Positions 1,559-14,148 of a stretch of 64,000 nucleotides of DNA are shown piece by piece; position 1 is the first letter of the stretch, and every line of letters starts with the position of its first letter. The DNA comes from Escherichia phage vB_EcoM-Pr121LW: sequence record MH752840.1; one strand, 5' to 3'. The notes beneath the pieces are model-generated. The model did no database searches, had not been told where the DNA came from, and saw only the letters and a list, made by a program, of their open reading frames with translations. Made by a program: the position numbers and the translations under genes.

Positions 1559-2842
1559 TCATTCAAGCACCTCCCAAGTGTCTGGGTTAACATTTCGGAC
1601 GCAGATACCGACAGGGAATTGGTAGTTGTTGTCTTCTGTCCTTGCTTGGTATTTGAAGGTGACAAACTTGCCGATCATTTCCTGCATCCTGTCATAGCTA
1701 CGCTCCTCGTGCGTGCCTTTCATCTTCATTTTAACAACAACACCTTCCTTGTCAACACAGATAAGAACACCTTCATCATTCTTATCTTTCTCAACGTCAA
1801 TAACTTTCACCTCTGCGTCGTTGAACTTTTTCCATTTCAATGCTTCAGATGTTCGCTGACCGTACTCGTATTTACCGCAGAAATTACGCATGATAGTACC
1901 TTCATATCCTTCGGACATGAATATACCAACAGATTCTTCGCAATGATCAACTGTGTACGCAAGCTCTGCGTCAACAACCTTGATATGATCAAGCATCAGA
2001 GTGGTAACGGTATCCTCTGCATCCATAAGATCCTTGCAGCGTCCAGACTCTGTTTCTGGATCCCACCACACCTTGTCGCTAGGAATATCAAAAATGTGAT
2101 ACTCCAGATCGTAGCTACAGTACCCACCGTAACGCAAATCATCACGAACAGGCTCAACATCGACAGGAATATCTACCTTGTTGAAGTTTTTGTATGTTGA
2201 TAAGCCTGCCTTAATTGCGGCATGACGGCGTTTTTTATCTGCCTCATAGTCTTTATCGATCTCGGCCTGAATCTCTTCCTGTGTGCGCCACCGTTTAGCA
2301 AGAGACACTATTTTCTGCAAAGGAAGACCATGAATGTATAGTTCCCCATCAAGTTGTTTAATACCAGTGGTAGAATGGAAAGAACGAAGTTGCTCTAAAA
2401 GCTTTCCTTGAATAGGGTAGGACTTATTACCACGGGAAATAAATTTAGGCTCACCATTTTGGAAAACAACAAGCAGACGAAGGCCATCTAACTTACGCAA
2501 GATCCAGCAAGGTAATTTAAGTGCCTTGCCACGCTTCAGGTAGTCATGCACCAGCATGGGTAAAAGGTCAACACCCTGCTCGCAATCTTCCATGTTTTCA
2601 ACATACCCCAGACGGACTTGTTTTTCCCACTTGCTGATAGCCTCAAGCTCGGCCTGTTGCTCAGCTGTAGTCTCATTGGCACGACCTACGTTCTTAGGTG
2701 TGCATACCGTCTCTTTGTACTGCAATTTACCGTCAAGCTTGCCAAACTCTACGATAACCTTTTCGCCATCAGTGAATACTTTCCACTGTTGGTAGCTGCC
2801 ATCTTTGTTCAGTGCGTACAGTGTTGTTTTGATTTGATGCAT
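1559..2842 (-). CDS. ATP-dependent DNA ligase
   Basis: 427 aa; nucleotidyltransferase motif I KxDG (LRKLDGLR); size and motif order fit the phage ATP-ligase family. Confidence 0.75.
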   Translation of the reverse strand: MHQIKTTLYALNKDGSYQQWKVFTDGEKVIVEFGKLDGKLQYKETVCTPKNVGRANETTAEQQAELEAISKWEKQVRLGYVENMEDCEQGVDLLPMLVHDYLKRGKALKLPCWILRKLDGLRLLVVFQNGEPKFISRGNKSYPIQGKLLEQLRSFHSTTGIKQLDGELYIHGLPLQKIVSLAKRWRTQEEIQAEIDKDYEADKKRRHAAIKAGLSTYKNFNKVDIPVDVEPVRDDLRYGGYCSYDLEYHIFDIPSDKVWWDPETESGRCKDLMDAEDTVTTLMLDHIKVVDAELAYTVDHCEESVGIFMSEGYEGTIMRNFCGKYEYGQRTSEALKWKKFNDAEVKVIDVEKDKNDEGVLICVDKEGVVVKMKMKGTHEERSYDRMQEMIGKFVTFKYQARTEDNNYQFPVGICVRNVNPDTWEVLE

Positions 2843-3406: not shown

Positions 3407-3468
3407 AACTAACTACCTCGCTGCATACTTTCCATAATAAGTAAAGCCGGGATTACCCGGCTATGTTG

Positions 3469-4182
3469 TCAAATAGACTCTGTTACATCCTTGAAGCTCG
3501 AAGGCTTCATGATCTTACCTTTACTGTCAAGGAATATGATAACTTTATTACCGTTGTAGAACTCTTCCTTAGCAACAAAACCTTCGTAGCGACCACCAAA
3601 ACGACGCTCAAGATCTTTAATCTCCAACTCGATGAGTTGTTCAGCAGGCATATCTGCACTGGCACCGTGTGAATGCCGTAGATGGTTGATCCGTGCAAAC
3701 TTACTGTCATTAGATTTGAGAACCTTCCGCATCATCCCACACACATCGCCGCGAAGCTGGAACAGCAAAGCTGTTGACAACTCCGCTAAGCGGTAAGCTG
3801 ACGCTCTTTGCTTGGATGTGTTTTTCGCAGCGATCAGTGTATCATAGAACTCACCAATCTTGAACTTAAGACCTCGTGGATTATCAAACAGGTTTGACCA
3901 CTTTTCGTGATTGTCATTAACAAGATAGGCGGCATAACTTGTGACAACGTGAAGATCGCAGGCCTCTTTTAACAGGTGATCTCCACCATCACCTTTCTCC
4001 AGCTCTTCCAAAACCTCATTGAACTCTTCCTCAATGAAGCTAAGCTGTAATTCGAATGGTGTGTATGATTTTTTCACTTTAGCTGCCACACGGTTCCAGT
4101 TTTCCACCCAGTTGGCAGACCAAAGGTAGTTTTCAGGCTGAGACAGTTTTTCCAGGTTGTCGATCAGTTTAGTATTCAGCAT
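3469..4182 (-). CDS. MazG-like nucleotide pyrophosphohydrolase domain protein
   Basis: 237 aa; acidic EExxE ... ExxD helix motif (FIEEEFNEVLEELEKGDGGDHLLKEACDLH) resembling all-alpha NTP pyrophosphatases. Confidence 0.4.
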   Translation of the reverse strand: MLNTKLIDNLEKLSQPENYLWSANWVENWNRVAAKVKKSYTPFELQLSFIEEEFNEVLEELEKGDGGDHLLKEACDLHVVTSYAAYLVNDNHEKWSNLFDNPRGLKFKIGEFYDTLIAAKNTSKQRASAYRLAELSTALLFQLRGDVCGMMRKVLKSNDSKFARINHLRHSHGASADMPAEQLIELEIKDLERRFGGRYEGFVAKEEFYNGNKVIIFLDSKGKIMKPSSFKDVTESI

Positions 4183-4195
4183 TAAAGGTCTCCTT

Positions 4196-4957
4196 TTAAA
4201 GTTCCATAAAGTTTTCTACAGTTTCAATAAATGCTTTATCAGAGAAAGCGTCAACAGCACCGTTAAACCATACAGGGATCCCGCGATCCTCATATTGATA
4301 AAGGTCGCTACGTGAAATGCCACTTCCATCTGCACTCTGCGAGTCATACTTGTTTACAATCAGCAGTTTTGTGCCTTTACAAGTAGCAGGAAACAATTCC
4401 CAGTTAAAATTAATAACTGTGTTAGAACAACCTACCAGGATCACCATATCATTGCTTGTGAGAGATGTCAACAGGTCATACATGTCTGTATACTTAGGAG
4501 CAACCTCACCGAAGAACACTACATTAGGCTTAACCCAGGTATACTTGCCTGTATCTACCTCCGTATATCCGATATTTTTAATTACATCGTTACCTTCAGC
4601 ATCTTCGTAGGTGATTTCAGGCAAATACCCGTGGACATGTAAAATATCTTCATGTTTTACACCAGCACGCTCCAGCAAATCATCTACATTGGTGGTAAGG
4701 TTGATCACACGACCAGACCAGCGGGAATACCACTCAGCGATCCGAAGATGTGCAAGGTTAGGATCAACACTGCCCAGAGCTACACGACGTGCATTGTAAA
4801 AGTCATGCACCTTATAGTAGTTCTTGGCAAAGGTGTGGATGTTGCACACCTCATCGATGCTGAAATTCTCCCACATTGCAGTGCTACCAGATCGGAAAGT
4901 GGGAATACCAGATTCAGCGCTCAAACCGGCACCGGAGATAATAATCAGTCGTCGCAT
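4196..4957 (-). CDS. Sir2-family NAD-dependent protein (sirtuin-like)
   Basis: 253 aa; GAGLSAESGIPTFR, TTNVDDL..AG, HVHG and VVFFGE motifs; no CxxC zinc-ribbon pairs seen after the HG motif. Confidence 0.8.
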   Translation of the reverse strand: MRRLIIISGAGLSAESGIPTFRSGSTAMWENFSIDEVCNIHTFAKNYYKVHDFYNARRVALGSVDPNLAHLRIAEWYSRWSGRVINLTTNVDDLLERAGVKHEDILHVHGYLPEITYEDAEGNDVIKNIGYTEVDTGKYTWVKPNVVFFGEVAPKYTDMYDLLTSLTSNDMVILVGCSNTVINFNWELFPATCKGTKLLIVNKYDSQSADGSGISRSDLYQYEDRGIPVWFNGAVDAFSDKAFIETVENFMEL

Positions 4958-4965
4958 AAGTGTCC

Positions 4966-5316
4966 TCAGTAGATGTTTTGTTTAATCTCTATTCCAAACT
5001 TCTTGAATGAGTCAGCAGCAAGCATAAATTTACGAGCTGCCGATGGATTAGAAGTATGTACGAAAATCTTCACGTTGTCAATCACTGGAGGCTTACCGAA
5101 TACAAATTTTTCCTCCAACATGGATAGGCAATCGTATCCTTCGAATACTTCTCCTAGGTCGTTGTCCATATGCCACTCAGAAACGCGTCTGTAGAGCTTT
5201 CCCTTATCGTTAATAAAATCCATAAACTCTGAGGAATTCTTCAGCCAAATAGCGTCTGGGAGTCCATAATTTGACGGATCTCTCAAATCATCCAGCCACA
5301 CAATCCACTTCTTCAT
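4966..5316 (-). CDS. hypothetical protein (possible RNA-repair-associated small domain)
   Basis: 116-aa ORF between the Sir2 and RNA ligase genes, overlapping the ligase stop; function inferred from context only. Confidence 0.4.
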   Translation of the reverse strand: MKKWIVWLDDLRDPSNYGLPDAIWLKNSSEFMDFINDKGKLYRRVSEWHMDNDLGEVFEGYDCLSMLEEKFVFGKPPVIDNVKIFVHTSNPSAARKFMLAADSFKKFGIEIKQNIY

Positions 5317-6248
5317 TGCATATAGTCCTCGTTGTGGAAATAGTAGTCCAGTATCTCACGACGCTCCTGCTCTAATAAGCAATTCCACACATCTTCTGTA
5401 TAGTTGCTACGAATAAATTTTACCATACCGTAAAACTCTTCGTCAACACGTTTAAAGATATCATCATCCCAAATCTTCCAAGCTTTACCCCTCATTACTG
5501 CCTTCCGTGCCAGATAGTATGGAGACTTGATCTTCAGCTGCAGATCATAAGGGTAGTAAGGCTTACGAATCATATACCCTTCACCTCTTGTTTCTGCAGC
5601 TAATTCTTTTGCATAGCTGAACGGAATTTCACGCACAGTGTGAGGACGTTTTGCACCAAGGTATTTGGCAATCCCATCTAAAGCTGCTTCTGGTAGCATT
5701 ATTCCAGAATCATTATATCTGCAACCTATCAAATATGCGCCATGATCTTCCTGAACAATATGCGGATCTGAAGGGTGGCAAATTTCAAACATGAATGTCA
5801 TGTTTTCATTGCCCATAACCTTCTTGATAAGATCTAAATTACCACATTGCTCCTTGATGGTTTCTTTTGCGAGGTTACAATATGGGGAATCAAGAGACCC
5901 GGTTGTTGAGAACAATAGTTCACCTTTATGAGATGATACCACACCGAGGAATCCGTTCTTTTTCTCTACCGCAGTAACAAGTTTACTGTCCGGTAGGTTG
6001 GTGGAGTTTTCTCCTAAGTTGAATACTTTTGTGAAAGGCCATGCCACAACATTCCCCTCATTGCCAACAACAATACCTCGGCACTCCAGTAAACGCGGAG
6101 ACAAATGCCACAGATCGTTGTAGAATACTTTTCTGGCATATTTATAGATCTTTAATCCAAGATCTGGATAATACCGACTGGTTACAAGACCTTTGTCTAC
6201 TAGGTCATCTGCATTAAAATACTTCATCATACGTTCCTCATTTGTCAT
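5313..6248 (-). CDS. RNA ligase 1 (T4 RnlA-like)
   Basis: 311 aa; LSPRLLECRGIVV and FTKVFNLGEN match T4 Rnl1 N-terminal motifs as I recall them; KxNG motif I (EKKNGFLG). Confidence 0.8.
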   Translation of the reverse strand: MTNEERMMKYFNADDLVDKGLVTSRYYPDLGLKIYKYARKVFYNDLWHLSPRLLECRGIVVGNEGNVVAWPFTKVFNLGENSTNLPDSKLVTAVEKKNGFLGVVSSHKGELLFSTTGSLDSPYCNLAKETIKEQCGNLDLIKKVMGNENMTFMFEICHPSDPHIVQEDHGAYLIGCRYNDSGIMLPEAALDGIAKYLGAKRPHTVREIPFSYAKELAAETRGEGYMIRKPYYPYDLQLKIKSPYYLARKAVMRGKAWKIWDDDIFKRVDEEFYGMVKFIRSNYTEDVWNCLLEQERREILDYYFHNEDYMQ

Positions 6249-6291
6249 TTTGTCAGTCTATCCTGCCACACAAATAACCTAGTGTCAACAC

Positions 6292-6320
6292 TTGAAATTA
6301 ACAAAACAGTTAGGTATACT
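6292..6320 (+). promoter_or_regulatory. sigma70-like promoter (TTGAAA-N17-TATACT)
   Basis: Consensus-like -35/-10 hexamers with 17-nt spacer upstream of the kinase gene. Confidence 0.45.
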
Positions 6321-6348
6321 ATCATTAAAATTAAAACGGAGGATTGCT

Positions 6349-6759
6349 ATGTCTAAAATGCTATATATCGTGCGTGGTCTGCCAGGGTCTGGCAAATCAA
6401 CACTGGCAAATGCGCTATCTTTAGAAGGTCTGTATCCACATTTTGAGAATGACATGTTTTGGTATGACGATGACGGCAATTACAACTGGGATGCAAGTAA
6501 AGTAACACTCGCAGCAAAATGGTGCAAAGATAACGTAGAAGATATGATGCGTATGGGATACGACCGTATCGTGGTAAGTAATACGTTTACAAAAGAAAAA
6601 CATGTGCAGGAATATGTTGACATGGCAATCAGTCATGGGTATAGTTATACCGTAATCGTGGTTGAAAACCGCCACGGTAATAAAAGCATTCATGATGTTC
6701 CAGACAAGGTTGTGGATCGTATGGAACGCCAGCTTAAAAACTGCATTAAACTTAAATGA
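6349..6759 (+). CDS. P-loop polynucleotide kinase-like protein
   Basis: Walker A GLPGSGKST near the N-terminus; start moved to the ATG at 6349 behind a GGAGG RBS. Confidence 0.6.
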   Translation: MSKMLYIVRGLPGSGKSTLANALSLEGLYPHFENDMFWYDDDGNYNWDASKVTLAAKWCKDNVEDMMRMGYDRIVVSNTFTKEKHVQEYVDMAISHGYSYTVIVVENRHGNKSIHDVPDKVVDRMERQLKNCIKLK

Positions 6760-6766
6760 GGAATGT

Positions 6767-7321
6767 ATGAAATACTTTGTAACAAGCGATACGCACTTTC
6801 TCCACCAGCGGGTCATGGAGTTTGATTCATGTCAAAAACACAGATCTCAATATGATCACAATCTTGACAGTATGAATGCGGGAATCATCACCGAGTGGAA
6901 CTCCGTTGTGTCACCTGCAGACACTGTGTTCCACCTGGGAGATATTGCGTGCACTAATGATAAGAATATCAACAACTTACTTCCAGATATTCTAAATATG
7001 TTGAACGGACATATTATTCTTGTTCGTGGCAACCATGACACAAGGACGACTGTCAGAATTATGAAAGAGTTCGGTCATGAGGTTGTAGATTATTACGAGC
7101 TTCGCCACAACAAGAATTTGATCTGTATGAGCCATTACCAGTTTGCAAAGTGGAACAGAAAGCCTCACGGATCAGTCCAACTGTTCGGTCATGCTCACGG
7201 AACCACACAACAGTTGTTTGGCAGGCAGCTTGATGTCGGTTGGGATGTGTGGGGGAGACTCTTACCATTAGAAGAGGCATACCGTATTGCAATGAGTTTT
7301 GATATTGACAGCAGGGAGTAA
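6767..7321 (+). CDS. calcineurin-like metallophosphoesterase
   Basis: VTSDTHF, HLGDIAC, GNHD and GHAH motifs; start moved to the ATG at 6767 behind a GAGGA RBS. Confidence 0.7.
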   Translation: MKYFVTSDTHFLHQRVMEFDSCQKHRSQYDHNLDSMNAGIITEWNSVVSPADTVFHLGDIACTNDKNINNLLPDILNMLNGHIILVRGNHDTRTTVRIMKEFGHEVVDYYELRHNKNLICMSHYQFAKWNRKPHGSVQLFGHAHGTTQQLFGRQLDVGWDVWGRLLPLEEAYRIAMSFDIDSRE

Positions 7322-10236: not shown

Positions 10237-10308
10237 GCCCTGTTAGCTTAGTGGATAAAGCAGCGGCCTTCTAAGCCGTTGACACTGGTTCGAGTCCAGT
10301 ACGGGGTG
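10237..10308 (+). tRNA. tRNA-Arg (anticodon TCT)
   Basis: Hand-folded cloverleaf: acceptor GCCCTGT/ACGGGGT with two G-U pairs, anticodon loop CTTCTAA, T-loop GGTTCGAGTCC, CCA encoded. Confidence 0.6.
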
Positions 10309-10442: not shown

Positions 10443-10527
10443 GGTGAGTTAATTCCGTAGGGGTAGCGGGGCAGACTGTAAATCTGTTATCATTGCGATT
10501 CGGGTGGTTCGACTCCATCACTCACCA
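10443..10527 (+). tRNA. tRNA-Tyr (anticodon GTA), long variable arm
   Basis: Anticodon arm GCAGACTGTAAATCTGT and variable arm resemble E. coli tRNA-Tyr; acceptor GGTGAGT/ACTCACC; CCA encoded. Confidence 0.65.
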
Positions 10528-10833: not shown

Positions 10834-10930
10834 GCTAGGTAAGCCCTTTGGCAAGGGCGAGGATTTTTAATCCTGAAAATAGACGAGGTAGTCGTTGAAT
10901 ACATAGGTGGTTCGATTCCACCACCTAGCA
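10834..10930 (+). tRNA. atypical tRNA-like element (anticodon possibly TTT; about 29-nt variable region)
   Basis: Acceptor GCTAGGT/ACCTAGC, D-arm GCCC..GGGC and T-arm GGTGGTTCGATTCCACC fold, but anticodon stem is 4 bp plus a mismatch and total length about 97 nt. Confidence 0.3.
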
Positions 10931-11997: not shown

Positions 11998-12281
11998 GAG
12001 TTGCTGCACTGTTTATTGTGTGCTTTTTATTATGCGGGTGTGCAACCAGCGTTGAGAGAGAATACAAGATTGACCCTCCTGATGTAGGAAGGTTGATTGT
12101 TAAACCCCCGGAAGGTGCCATGAAACCACCTGCTAAAGCTATGCCTTTGAAGAAAGGTGCGCCAGATGCAGTGAATTCTGGCATTATGAGGGATAATAAT
12201 CTGTCTTGTAGCAATGATAGAGCTAAATTGATCATTTTGCAAGACTATATTAGAACACTGTTTCCAAAGGAGAGAGGTTAA
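11994..12281 (+). CDS. o-spanin (Rz1-like outer-membrane lipoprotein)
   Basis: Signal peptide with lipobox-like FLLCGC, proline-rich mature region; overlaps i-spanin stop; AGGAGG RBS. Confidence 0.55.
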   Translation: MRVAALFIVCFLLCGCATSVEREYKIDPPDVGRLIVKPPEGAMKPPAKAMPLKKGAPDAVNSGIMRDNNLSCSNDRAKLIILQDYIRTLFPKERG

Positions 12282-12706
12282 TGTCTAAGATTTACGGACC
12301 GTGTTCTGAAAAGCAGAAGATGATCCTCGAAAACGATGCAGATATTTTGGTAATCGGCGGTGCCGCAGGGTCTGGCAAGTCGTTCCTCTTGCAGTTGATG
12401 CCGCTTAAAATTATCGATGACCCCCACAGCTCTGTGGTTATGTTCCGAAGAACAACCCCACAGTTGGAAGGTGAGGGTGGACTATGGCCTAAAGCAGTAG
12501 CTATTTATAGCGATCTGCCTGAAAACATTAAGCCAAAGTTCAGAGAGAAGGATCATAAGTTCATTTTTCCACGGTTTGATCCGAACACTGGCAAGTGGGA
12601 TAGAAGCAAAAAGGGAGCTGTTGTAAAATACTGCCACATGGAGTATGTACAAGATAAGCTTAACCATCAAGGGCTTGAGTACACCATGGTTTGCTTCGAT
12701 GAGGGT
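12281..12706 (+). CDS. terL: terminase large subunit, exon 1 (ATPase domain)
   Basis: Walker A GGAAGSGKS, Walker B-like MVCFDE; ORF stops at TAA 12707-12709, taken as the first intron codon. Confidence 0.7.
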
Positions 12707-13023
12707 TAATTTGTAGCTCTCGTAAAACCTCCCTAATTGCGGGGAAATCTTTACTATTAATACCACCAACCTGTCATGGTAACATGATAGAGGCTTCGAA
12801 GAGAGATCGAAGGTATGGTAACAGTGTGTTAATTTAGATAATCCGCAGCGAAGCATCCGAGAGGATGAACGTTCAACGACTAGTCGAAAGACGTAGAATC
12901 AAGCGATTCGAAACGGGAGGGTAAGCGGTTGTTGTCGCTTATAAGATATAGTCTGGTCTGCATGGAGACATGCAGCTGCCTGAAAAATGGCGGGGCAAGA
13001 CTAGCGACCTTGCCCGAACATAG
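12707..13023 (+). ncRNA. group I self-splicing intron (no internal ORF); boundaries approximate
   Basis: Conserved core motifs GTTCAACGACTAGTCG (12871-12886) and AAGATATAGTC (12943-12953); splits terL; 5' exon ends in U, intron ends in G. Confidence 0.6.
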
Positions 13024-14148
13024 ACGACACAATTCGAATGGGAGCAGATAGACTATCTGATGTCTCGTCTGCGATCTCAGTCAAAGTATCCATCAAGGAT
13101 GGTTATCAGCTGTAACCCTGATTCAGAACACATGCTTGCCAAACTGGTTAGATGGTGGTTGGACGATGAAGGGTATCCAGATCCGGAGAAATGTGGTAAG
13201 AAAAGATATTTTATCCGACGCGACGGTGAATTTATTTGGGGGGACTCTAAGGAGGAGTTGATAGAGAAATACACCACGGTTAACGGACTGGGTGTAGAGA
13301 TCAAGCCAAGACCGTTGTCATTCTCGTTCATAGGCGCAACAATATTCGATAATCCTGTCTGTTTGAGAGACAACCCAGAATACCTTGCTTTCCTCGAAGG
13401 TCTACCAGAGCTGGAAAAAGCTCAGCTTCTCCATGGTAACTGGTTTGCAAAGCCTGAGGGTGCAAACTATTTTCAAAGATCTTTCCTTCGTGATGCCGAT
13501 AGAGTACCCCTTGGATCAGTATCTTGCAGGGCATGGGATAAGGCAGGAACCGAGAGAACTTCTGGCAATAAATTTCCTGACTTTACTGCCAGTATTAAGG
13601 TAAGTAAAGATAGCGACGGCTTTTATTACCTGTCAGGGGATTATTGTCCTGAAAACGTGGATGACGGGAGGTATTCCACAGGTCTGGAAGGCAAGTTCTG
13701 TAAAAAGGCTGGTGAACGAGATGTGATCATCAGGAAACAGGCGCAGTTTGATGGTGATGATTGCATAATCGTATTCTCTGTGGACCCTGGTCAGGCAGGT
13801 AAGAGTGAGTTCTTAACCTCATCCAGATCCTTGCTCGCAGAAGGGTTCAGGGTTGAAGAAGACCCAATGCCTTCCAACAAGTCTAAACTGACAAGGTTCT
13901 CACCTTTTGCCAATCTTGCCCAACAAGGGATGGTGAGGATTGTAAAATCCAGTTTCCATCCTGATACTCTGGAAGCATTTCTGACCGAACTTGAAAAATT
14001 CAACGGGGAAAGATCAACATTTAACAGAAAAGACGACTGGGCTGACTGTGTAGCTTCTGCAATTAATTTCCTGGAGAAAGAGGAGGTAGCACTTCCTTGT
14101 GTGATTCCATCAATCTCATCACCTTCTATGTTCAAGCGTTTTATCTAG
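13024..14148 (+). CDS. terL: terminase large subunit, exon 2 (nuclease domain)
   Basis: Frame opens at 13024 right after an in-frame TAG; encodes TTQFEWEQIDYLMSRLRS... continuing the TerL fold with acidic nuclease motifs (DPGQAGKSEF, DDWADC). Confidence 0.65.
   Translation, partial: TTQFEWEQIDYLMSRLRSQSKYPSRMVISCNPDSEHMLAKLVRWWLDDEGYPDPEKCGKKRYFIRRDGEFIWGDSKEELIEKYTTVNGLGVEIKPRPLSFSFIGATIFDNPVCLRDNPEYLAFLEGLPELEKAQLLHGNWFAKPEGANYFQRSFLRDADRVPLGSVSCRAWDKAGTERTSGNKFPDFTASIKVSKDSDGFYYLSGDYCPENVDDGRYSTGLEGKFCKKAGERDVIIRKQAQFDGDDCIIVFSVDPGQAGKSEFLTSSRSLLAEGFRVEEDPMPSNKSKLTRFSPFANLAQQGMVRIVKSSFHPDTLEAFLTELEKFNGERSTFNRKDDWADCVASAINFLEKEEVALPCVIPSISSPSMFKRFI

Follow-up and report, generated by a model that had tools for sequence, protein, structure and literature searches.

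Organization of the locus

The genome of Escherichia phage vB_EcoM-Pr121LW (sequence record MH752840.1) contains a compact block of six genes, three of which—encoding an RNA ligase, a P-loop kinase and a metallophosphoesterase—form a conserved unit. As a preliminary description of this DNA had proposed, this unit is best read as a predicted RNA end-healing and sealing system, given its motifs, profile matches, gene linkage and fusions. All coordinates refer to the 64,000-nucleotide (nt) stretch analyzed here, termed the window, in which the block spans positions 3469-7321. The window is a segment of a Vequintavirus (rV5-like myovirus) genome, and the block is 99.8% identical to that of Escherichia phage Murica. 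Moreover, this 3.85-kb region is kept in 117 phage records, with at least 80% of its length covered and identities of 90-99.8%—a conservation far beyond chance. An open reading frame (ORF) scan placed four leftward (-) and two rightward (+) genes in the block. All five ORFs named in the preliminary description were recovered with unchanged ends, including the 116-amino-acid (aa) frame and the MazG-like gene that it had assigned to the operon; a sirtuin gene at 4196-4957 had been overlooked. The genes and associated features are the following:

3462-3445, - strand: terminator-like hairpin with a GC-rich 7-bp stem and a T-rich tail, 6 nt past the MazG-like stop
3469-4182, - strand: MazG-like gene, 237 aa
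4196-4957, - strand: Sir2-family (sirtuin) gene, 253 aa
4966-5316, - strand: cREC gene, 116 aa
5313-6248, - strand: RNA ligase gene, 311 aa, the first gene of the leftward operon
6249-6348, no strand: divergent intergenic control region with promoter and ribosome-binding site consensus matches
6349-6759, + strand: Pnk-type kinase gene, 136 aa, stand-alone
6767-7321, + strand: metallophosphoesterase gene, 184 aa

The leftward operon is tightly spaced, with a 4-nt overlap between the ligase stop and the cREC start followed by gaps of 8 and 13 nt, and the Murica record carries an annotated terminator at the position equivalent to the 3445-3462 hairpin. On the opposite strand, 7 nt separate the kinase from the phosphoesterase. 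A sigma-70-like TTGAAA-17-TATACT sequence at 6292-6320 (+) lies upstream of the kinase, and a GGAGG at 6340-6344 directly precedes its ATG at 6349, both being consensus matches only; no sigma-70-like promoter for the leftward ligase operon was identified in the intergenic region. The divergent pairing of ligase and kinase, which had been pointed out earlier, is present in the window but proved peculiar to the rV5 lineage: among the loci compared below, this layout is common only to the closest relative (L003), the other loci being co-directional, and in sister lineages the cREC and Sir2 genes lie between those of the ligase and the kinase. Seven phage tRNA genes form a cluster that starts at 10237, i.e., 2.9 kb to the right of the phosphoesterase stop, in agreement with the distance of about 3 kb estimated before. 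Existing GenBank labels in this family of loci include RNA ligase, polynucleotide kinase (in BASEL phages) and phosphoesterase, and many records carry the T4 gp63 label 'tail fibre attachment' for the ligase.

Sequence signatures of the ligase, kinase and phosphoesterase

Profile searches for the three core activities gave Pfam matches above the curated cut-offs in every case. The ligase scored 55.9 bits against RNA_lig_T4_1 (PF09511; cut-off 28.3, E = 7e-15), a model that also covers Trl1-type ligases, and it missed the cut-off of the NCBIfam equivalog TIGR02308 (37.7 bits versus 242). The nucleotidyltransferase motifs I (K96-x-N98-G99), III (E155), IV (E223-G224) and V (K239/K241) are invariant across 36 homologues and across 113 ligase domains from phage and bacterial loci, and they align with K99, E159, E227-G228 and K240/K242 of T4 Rnl1. 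An Rnl1-type N-subdomain is likewise conserved, with R57 invariant, K or R at position 74 and F or Y at position 76; these positions align with T4 Arg54, Lys75 and Phe77, which provide ATP γ-phosphate and adenine contacts (PMC6379707). Family profiles were needed to detect these relationships: a single-sequence search of the PDB with the ligase returned nothing at E-values up to 1, whereas the family profile retrieved T4 Rnl1 at E = 4e-13. No Trl1 chain in the PDB was found by that profile, even at E-values up to 10. Pairwise profile alignment with hhalign placed ligase residues 53-244 on T4 Rnl1 residues 47-248 (97.6% probability), covering the adenylyltransferase domain only. Fungal Trl1-LIG matched the ligase as well as T4 Rnl1 did, over more residues. 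Other ligase families scored lower (Rnl3, 17.2; Rnl5, 14.7; Rnl2, 13.9; Pnkp ligase, 8.3; and the Rnl of the Pnkp1 system, 7.0), a ranking with which Foldseek agreed. The window ligase is an ATP-dependent RNA ligase, by predicted activity, of the Rnl1/Trl1-LIG structural group and not a full T4 RnlA-type enzyme. The earlier designation as a T4 RnlA-like ligase is hence borne out for the adenylyltransferase motifs and the Rnl1 N-subdomain, but not for the enzyme as a whole, since the T4 C-terminal domain is absent and Trl1-LIG matches equally well. The family is present in 768 isolate phage genomes.

The kinase matched Pfam AAA_33 with 42.5 bits (cut-off 27, E = 1e-10). Within its P-loop, G10-x-x-G13-x-G15-K16-S17, residues G10, G13, G15 and K16 are invariant across 33 family members, as is D35. 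In hhalign, the protein aligned with the whole kinase domain of T4 Pnk (residues 1-155) at 98.1% probability and E = 7e-14, with D35 placed on the catalytic Asp35. A single-sequence PDB search with the kinase gave a P-loop match only, while the kinase profile retrieved Pnkp1 (4XRP, E = 4e-8), T4 Pnk, the CthPnkp kinase (4GP7, E = 2e-6), PSTK and mammalian PNKP. Neither a fused HAD 3'-phosphatase nor any second domain was found in the 136-aa protein. These relationships support the earlier assignment as a 5'-kinase and point to a stand-alone, Pnk-type polynucleotide 5'-kinase. A function as a deoxynucleoside monophosphate (dNMP) kinase was also considered and rejected as far as sequence analysis allows, because the top full-length matches of solved structure act as kinases on polynucleotides or tRNA, with no dNMP kinase among them.

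The phosphoesterase matched Pfam Metallophos_2 with 29.1 bits (cut-off 27, E = 1e-6), and its dimetal motifs are complete: D8-x-H10, G58-D59, G88-N89-H90-D91, H123 and G141-H142-x-H144 are invariant or nearly so. Its nearest structure is aq_1665 of Aquifex aeolicus (PDB 1XM7), an uncharacterised metallophosphoesterase, and its nearest characterised structural neighbours are LpxH, lambda phosphatase, MJ0936 and YfcE, which act on small-molecule or protein substrates. The protein is a minimal, binuclear calcineurin-like metallophosphoesterase of the aq_1665 type, presumed to be the 3'-end healing enzyme. The calcineurin-type part of its previous description thus stands, and the label 'bacterial Pnkp-like' was dropped, as the likeness to Pnkp holds only at the superfamily level. 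Neither a Pnkp-type (lambda-phosphatase-like) phosphatase domain nor a Pnkp-type ligase domain was found among the window proteins.

Linkage, fusions and accessory genes across phage and bacterial loci

The distribution of the six genes was examined in 80 IMG/VR loci with ligase homologues (35-89% identity), whose ORFs were searched with iterated profiles of the six window proteins. Collapsing the ligases at 90% identity yielded 59 lineages, 45 of which had at least 3 kb of flanking sequence on both sides. Among these 45 non-redundant loci, the kinase was found near the ligase in 42 and the phosphoesterase in 41, with both partners present in 38; the cREC gene was near the ligase in 8, and the Sir2 and MazG-like genes in 9 each. 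The triad genes occur in several orders (e.g., phosphoesterase-ligase-kinase and kinase-ligase-phosphoesterase) and are often adjacent or overlapping. The ligase-kinase-phosphoesterase triad, shared by about 90% of loci, is therefore a widespread core, to which about 20% add the sirtuin, cREC and MazG-like genes in a lineage-specific manner.

Gene fusions provide a physical counterpart to this linkage. In two phage lineages (about 13 loci), kinase and ligase are joined in an ORF of approximately 420-430 aa with the architecture AAA_33 plus RNA_lig_T4_1 (e.g., L044), and no recognisable phosphoesterase lies within 6 kb of these phage fusions. The family is rare in a collection of bacterial species (32 loci). 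There, Cardiobacteriaceae encode a kinase-ligase fusion with a phosphoesterase gene adjacent or within about 0.8 kb. Moreover, in Leptolyngbyaceae, single proteins of 712-771 aa combine all three domains in the order AAA_33-Metallophos-RNA_lig_T4_1 (L094:4726-6864 in Leptolyngbya sp. PCC 7375, with similar proteins in L086-L112). This cyanobacterial fusion has the domain order of Pnkp, but its ligase domain is RNA_lig_T4_1 and related to the phage ligase; in L094 no adjacent Hen1 was found, and an RtcB gene lies 1.6 kb downstream. Together with a linkage that persists through rearrangement, the fusions are the strongest evidence that kinase, phosphoesterase and ligase work together. As a separate observation, a conserved 236-aa ORF lies directly upstream of the phage kinase-ligase fusion (L044:4395-5108, L037:4283-4993, L051, L054 and L055); it has no match in Pfam or to the six window-protein profiles.

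The three further genes of the leftward operon are accessories confined to rV5-like lineages. The 116-aa protein, previously listed as uncharacterised, is a cREC_REC domain (PF20274, cyclic-phosphate-processing receiver domain; 54.5 bits versus a cut-off of 27, E = 2e-14) with D9, D10, R12, D51, D53, N90 and P91 invariant and near-invariance at T88/S89 and K96. The cREC family was defined in a 2021 jumbo-phage paper by the authors of Iyer et al.; it has a predicted role in cyclic-phosphate processing and is found, unaccompanied by a histidine kinase, only in RNA-repair or ADP-ribose contexts. In our loci, cREC adjoins the triad in several gene orders, with no sirtuin detected in the available flanks of L035, L070 and L005/L006. 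The sirtuin itself matched PF02146 (SIR2) at E = 7e-28, with CobB-like NCBIfam matches far under their cut-offs. Its GAGxSxESG, TTNVDDL and H109-G110 motifs show no variation within the clade and KPNVVFFGE is present; no Zn-ribbon cysteines (CxxC pairs) occur in any member. A PADLOC scan of the six proteins gave no defence-system match save weak P-loop matches for the kinase, so the sirtuin is not a defence-type SIR2. Finally, the MazG-like protein matched phrog_671 (nucleotide pyrophosphohydrolases) at E = 1.3e-21 and, in Pfam, only PRA-PH at E = 0.085. With an EExxE...ExxD metal-binding motif at residues 51-56 and 73-76, it is predicted to be an all-alpha NTP pyrophosphohydrolase, the C-terminal half of the protein having no assignment.

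Unbiased clustering of the neighbouring ORFs revealed additional recurrent genes, counted over all loci and over the 59 lineages:

NAMPT-like: 39 loci, 33 non-redundant lineages
Prs-like: 32 loci, 27 non-redundant lineages
Macro: 14 loci, 14 non-redundant lineages
HD: 15 loci, 13 non-redundant lineages

Genes of the Prs-like, NAMPT-like and Macro types, often with HD, flank the triad in varied orders (L011, L016-L018, L020, L022, L025-L027, L029-L031, L033, L036 and others), as exemplified by Pakpunavirus phiMK (L116:6492-13833). These neighbours may be genes for the salvage or reconstitution of nicotinamide adenine dinucleotide (NAD+). Their recurrence fits a link to NAD+ and ADP-ribose and fits equally well a broader tendency of counter-defence and nucleotide-metabolism genes to cluster. 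The window also encodes a 427-aa ATP-dependent DNA ligase at 1559-2842 (-), 0.6 kb past the operon, whose Pfam matches are confined to the OB domain and the end of the adenylation domain.

Candidate repair routes and the surrounding region

We consider the repair of RNA breaks, by one route or another, to be the likely function of the module. The healing-and-sealing interpretation follows from the catalytic motifs, the profile matches to T4 Rnl1 and T4 Pnk, the co-occurrence in about 90% of loci and the fusions, with additional support from an independent published prediction and from the seven tRNA genes 2.9 kb away. In its direct form, akin to the T4 and Pnkp routes and passing through a 2'-OH,3'-OH end, the kinase would phosphorylate the 5'-OH end, the phosphoesterase would then remove the 2',3'-cyclic or 3'-phosphate left by metal-independent ribonucleases, and the ligase would act last, sealing the break via a lysyl-AMP intermediate on K96. 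The targets restored would be tRNAs or other RNAs cleaved during infection by anticodon nucleases of the host or by comparable RNases that serve as defences or toxins. The cREC protein, the Zn-less sirtuin and the MazG-like protein of the rV5 lineage could constitute an accessory branch that uses NAD+ on cyclic-phosphate or 2'-phosphate ends. This direct route for the triad, with the other three genes as accessories, is the version that we favour, its chances being about even. The presence of the genes, their motifs, folds and family memberships, their linkage and the fusions are observed; from them we infer the enzymatic activities, the RNA (tRNA) substrate, the order of steps and the connection to particular host nucleases.

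Two known systems provide the closest parallels to such a direct route. In T4, Pnk (PseT) and RnlA repair tRNA-Lys cut by PrrC, and the same three activities are expected of the window proteins; both sets are phage-encoded, tRNA genes lie near the window module, and the alignment of the window kinase spans the kinase domain of T4 Pnk in full. However, healing is split over two small proteins in the window, with a dimetal metallophosphoesterase replacing the T4 HAD domain, and the T4 genes have no cREC, sirtuin or MazG gene beside them (T4 region). The bacterial Pnkp-Hen1 (Clostridium thermocellum, Anabaena) and Pnkp1-Rnl-Hen1 systems employ the same chemistries through a P-loop kinase, a binuclear metallophosphoesterase and an ATP-dependent ligase. 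The window proteins are, by comparison, separate and much smaller, and no Hen1 methyltransferase is encoded in either operon, whereas the cyanobacterial relatives of the window ligase are fused in the Pnkp order, kinase-metallophosphoesterase-ligase. The finding is real, already in the literature as a prediction, and a split variant of known heal-and-seal systems.

Several observations weigh against the direct route, or against parts of it. The window ligase is 63 aa shorter than that of T4, and hhalign revealed no counterpart of the T4 Rnl1 C-terminal tRNA-specificity domain (aa 255-374), so that tRNA is only a possible substrate. In the kinase, no clear equivalents of the RNA-binding Arg38 and Arg126 of T4 Pnk were found: position 38 is W in the window protein, and an ENRHG arginine is shared by only some family members. 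None of the close relatives of the phosphoesterase is characterised, and aq_1665 offers no clue to the substrate, which leaves gene context as the sole source of its presumed 3'-end healing role. Part of the co-localisation of the triad could be synteny inherited among related myoviruses, and DNA ligase and deoxycytidylate (dCMP) deaminase genes also recur near the triad. We found no experimental or genetic study of rV5-type RNA repair proteins in the literature. Additionally, invariant residues of the ligase and its putatively Trl1-like C-terminal region suggest that a 2'-phosphate, and not a diol, might be the form in which the 3' end reaches the ligase.

The invariant residues are a new lead of the present analysis. 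In Chaetomium Trl1-LIG, the sulfate/2'-phosphate ligands are Asn150 (in motif I, KENG), His227, Arg334 and Arg337, with His227 nine residues after the motif III Glu218 and the two arginines at +9 and +12 after Lys325, the second lysine of motif V (PMC6379707, PMC11404444). In the phage family, H163 (+8 after E155), K249 (+8 after K241) and R253 (+12) do not vary in any of the 113 sequences, nor does N98 of the K-x-N98-G motif in the 112 that are ungapped there. These four residues appear to sit at the positions of the Trl1 2'-phosphate pocket, although the match is one of spacing only, with a deviation of one residue at two of the positions. T4 Rnl1, by contrast, has KEDG as motif I and Asp101, Ile167, His250 and Ser254 at the corresponding sites, and it is unable to join 2'-phosphate ends (PMC12440814). 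Plant Trl1 requires a 2'-phosphate and yet lacks both arginines (PMC12440814), so the pocket residues are no universal signature.

The ligase features add to a published proposal. In section 3.7.3 of their paper, Iyer, Burroughs, Anantharaman and Aravind (2022, Viruses 14:1977, PMC9503650) already described the same neighbourhood as a predicted NAD+-using RNA repair system, namely as a type 2 sirtuin-centred neighbourhood with Escherichia phage V5 and Proteus phage Mydo as prototypes. All six components listed there—sirtuin, T4-like tRNA ligase, cREC, nucleotide kinase, MazG pyrophosphatase and calcineurin-like phosphoesterase—are found at 3469-7321, in the same phage lineage. According to that section, the sirtuin would strip 2'-phosphates with NAD+ in the manner of KptA/Tpt1, and the other proteins would open the cyclic phosphate or process ADP-ribose>p. 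The section centres the system on the sirtuin and calls the phosphoesterase 'occasional', whereas our tally gives the reverse hierarchy, with the triad as core; this section on the neighbourhood makes no mention of Trl1-like pocket residues in the ligase.

With a sirtuin in the operon, an NAD+-dependent 2'-phosphate route becomes possible instead of plain T4 chemistry, and a fungal/plant-type Trl1 plus Tpt1 pathway as the main route is the leading alternative, if a rather doubtful one. Here, cREC and/or the metallophosphoesterase would open the 2',3'-cyclic phosphate to a 3'-OH,2'-phosphate end and the kinase would make the 5'-phosphate. The ligase would need or strongly prefer the 2'-phosphate, and the sirtuin, acting like Tpt1/KptA, would remove it from the junction with NAD+—a step left to host KptA where the phage has no sirtuin—while MazG, cREC or the phosphoesterase would clear the ADP-ribose cyclic-phosphate by-product. 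Besides the published proposal, as far as its section on the neighbourhood goes (PMC9503650), this route is consistent with the positional equivalents of the 2'-phosphate ligands in the ligase, at which T4 Rnl1 differs, and with a P-loop kinase partner as in Trl1 (LIG-KIN-CPD, its LIG forming the 'Rnl6' clade); stand-alone 'sealing-only' LIG enzymes are described for Mucorales. The operon also contains cREC together with an NAD+-using enzyme, the sirtuin, that keeps its NAD+ and catalytic-His motifs, and across the 59 lineages NAMPT-like or Prs-like genes lie beside the triad in 27-33 and Macro in 14. The parallel is nonetheless partial. The window components are separate genes; there is neither a 2H cyclic phosphodiesterase, with cREC and the metallophosphoesterase in its place, nor an enzyme of the Tpt1/KptA fold, and the ligase has no detectable sequence-profile similarity to Trl1-LIG at E-values up to 10. 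Furthermore, 36 of the 45 well-flanked lineages carry the triad with no sirtuin at all, no Tpt1/KptA gene was seen in the flanks of those loci, and the window has no NAMPT-like, Prs-like or Macro homologue. The lack of the arginines in plant Trl1 and the off-by-one spacing count on the same side. We know of no sirtuin that acts as an RNA 2'-phosphotransferase, which also speaks against this route. Somewhat less likely again is the broader notion that the phage ligase family is a viral counterpart of the fungal/plant tRNA ligase, recognising a 2'-phosphate end by means of N98, H163, K249 and R253, and that rV5 phages have a eukaryote-style pathway made from unrelated parts, with cREC or the phosphoesterase as the cyclic phosphodiesterase, the Zn-less sirtuin as a 2'-phosphotransferase replacing Tpt1, and host KptA serving where no sirtuin is present.

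A different account, which we regard as improbable, denies the six genes a common pathway: the sirtuin, MazG-like, cREC and phosphoesterase proteins would serve counter-defence against NAD+/ADP-ribose or cyclic-nucleotide signals, the P-loop protein would be a nucleotide kinase and the ligase would have an unrelated role. Anti-defence and nucleotide-metabolism genes of phages do often cluster, and the same neighbourhoods carry NAMPT-like, Prs-like, Macro, HD, dCMP deaminase and DNA ligase genes. The substrates of the characterised structural neighbours of the phosphoesterase, small molecules and proteins, agree with this account, and Iyer et al., in the section cited, name the kinase only 'nucleotide kinase' (PMC9503650). 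Yet the kinase-ligase and kinase-phosphoesterase-ligase fusions join the core proteins physically, the kinase profile matches polynucleotide kinases over the full length with the catalytic Asp aligned, and the linkage of the triad outlasts changes in gene order while other neighbours come and go.

Least probable is a role in DNA repair, in which kinase and phosphoesterase would heal 3'-phosphate/5'-OH DNA nicks or ends for the DNA ligase at 1559-2842, as in PNKP or the bacterial Lhr-MPE-ligase clusters. T4 Pnk acts on DNA too, 27 of the 45 loci have a gene for an ATP-dependent DNA ligase no more than 6 kb from the RNA ligase, and the phosphoesterase has a weak match to the NCBIfam ligase-associated endonuclease PdeM (E = 2.5e-4, far under the cut-off). 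However, in none of the 45 loci does the DNA ligase adjoin the triad, which weakens this alternative, whereas the RNA ligase is adjacent or fused; every fusion is to an RNA_lig_T4_1 domain, and both cREC and the published context analysis indicate RNA ends.

The RNA healing-and-sealing interpretation bears implications for phage biology, as cleavage of tRNA and other RNAs is a common bacterial anti-phage strategy and, besides T4 Pnk/Rnl1, phage repair systems have hardly been studied experimentally. Given how widely the ligase family occurs among isolates, its biochemistry would account for the evasion of such defences by many phages of the therapeutic type (rV5-like, PAK_P1-like and others). 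Should the 2'-phosphate/NAD+ branch prove true, it would bring new enzymology for both sirtuins and cREC domains, offer bacterial KptA, a long-orphan enzyme, a possible natural substrate and furnish RNA biotechnology with compact new ligases and enzymes that modify RNA ends; otherwise, the module would simply be a split version of the known heal-and-seal scheme.

A few observations on the records and on the surrounding region deserve mention. Eighteen GenBank records (MG0656xx) named 'Campylobacter phage' are about 97% identical to the full-length coliphage region; either the host given for them is questionable or there was a mix-up of stocks. Within the tRNA cluster, an unusual 97-nt tRNA at 10834-10930 (+) has the anticodon loop UUUUUAA, read as Lys (UUU), on a weak anticodon stem, together with a variable arm of some 27 nt; it was left untyped by ARAGORN and is annotated as Lys or 'other' in GenBank. 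Since tRNA-Lys(UUU) is a classic target of anticodon nucleases, this odd tRNA could be a nuclease-resistant substitute. A tRNA-Tyr (anticodon GTA) at 10443-10527 (+), missed by ARAGORN, was recognised by an Rfam match of 39 bits; with respect to tRNA-Arg, it is shifted by about 130 nt compared with the Murica record. Finally, a group I intron (Rfam RF00028, 84 bits) at 12697-12975 (+) splits the terminase large-subunit gene, terL, into two ORFs at 12281-12709 and 13060-14148 (region 12281-14148), whereas Murica, otherwise 99.8% identical, is annotated with an uninterrupted terL of 1548 nt.

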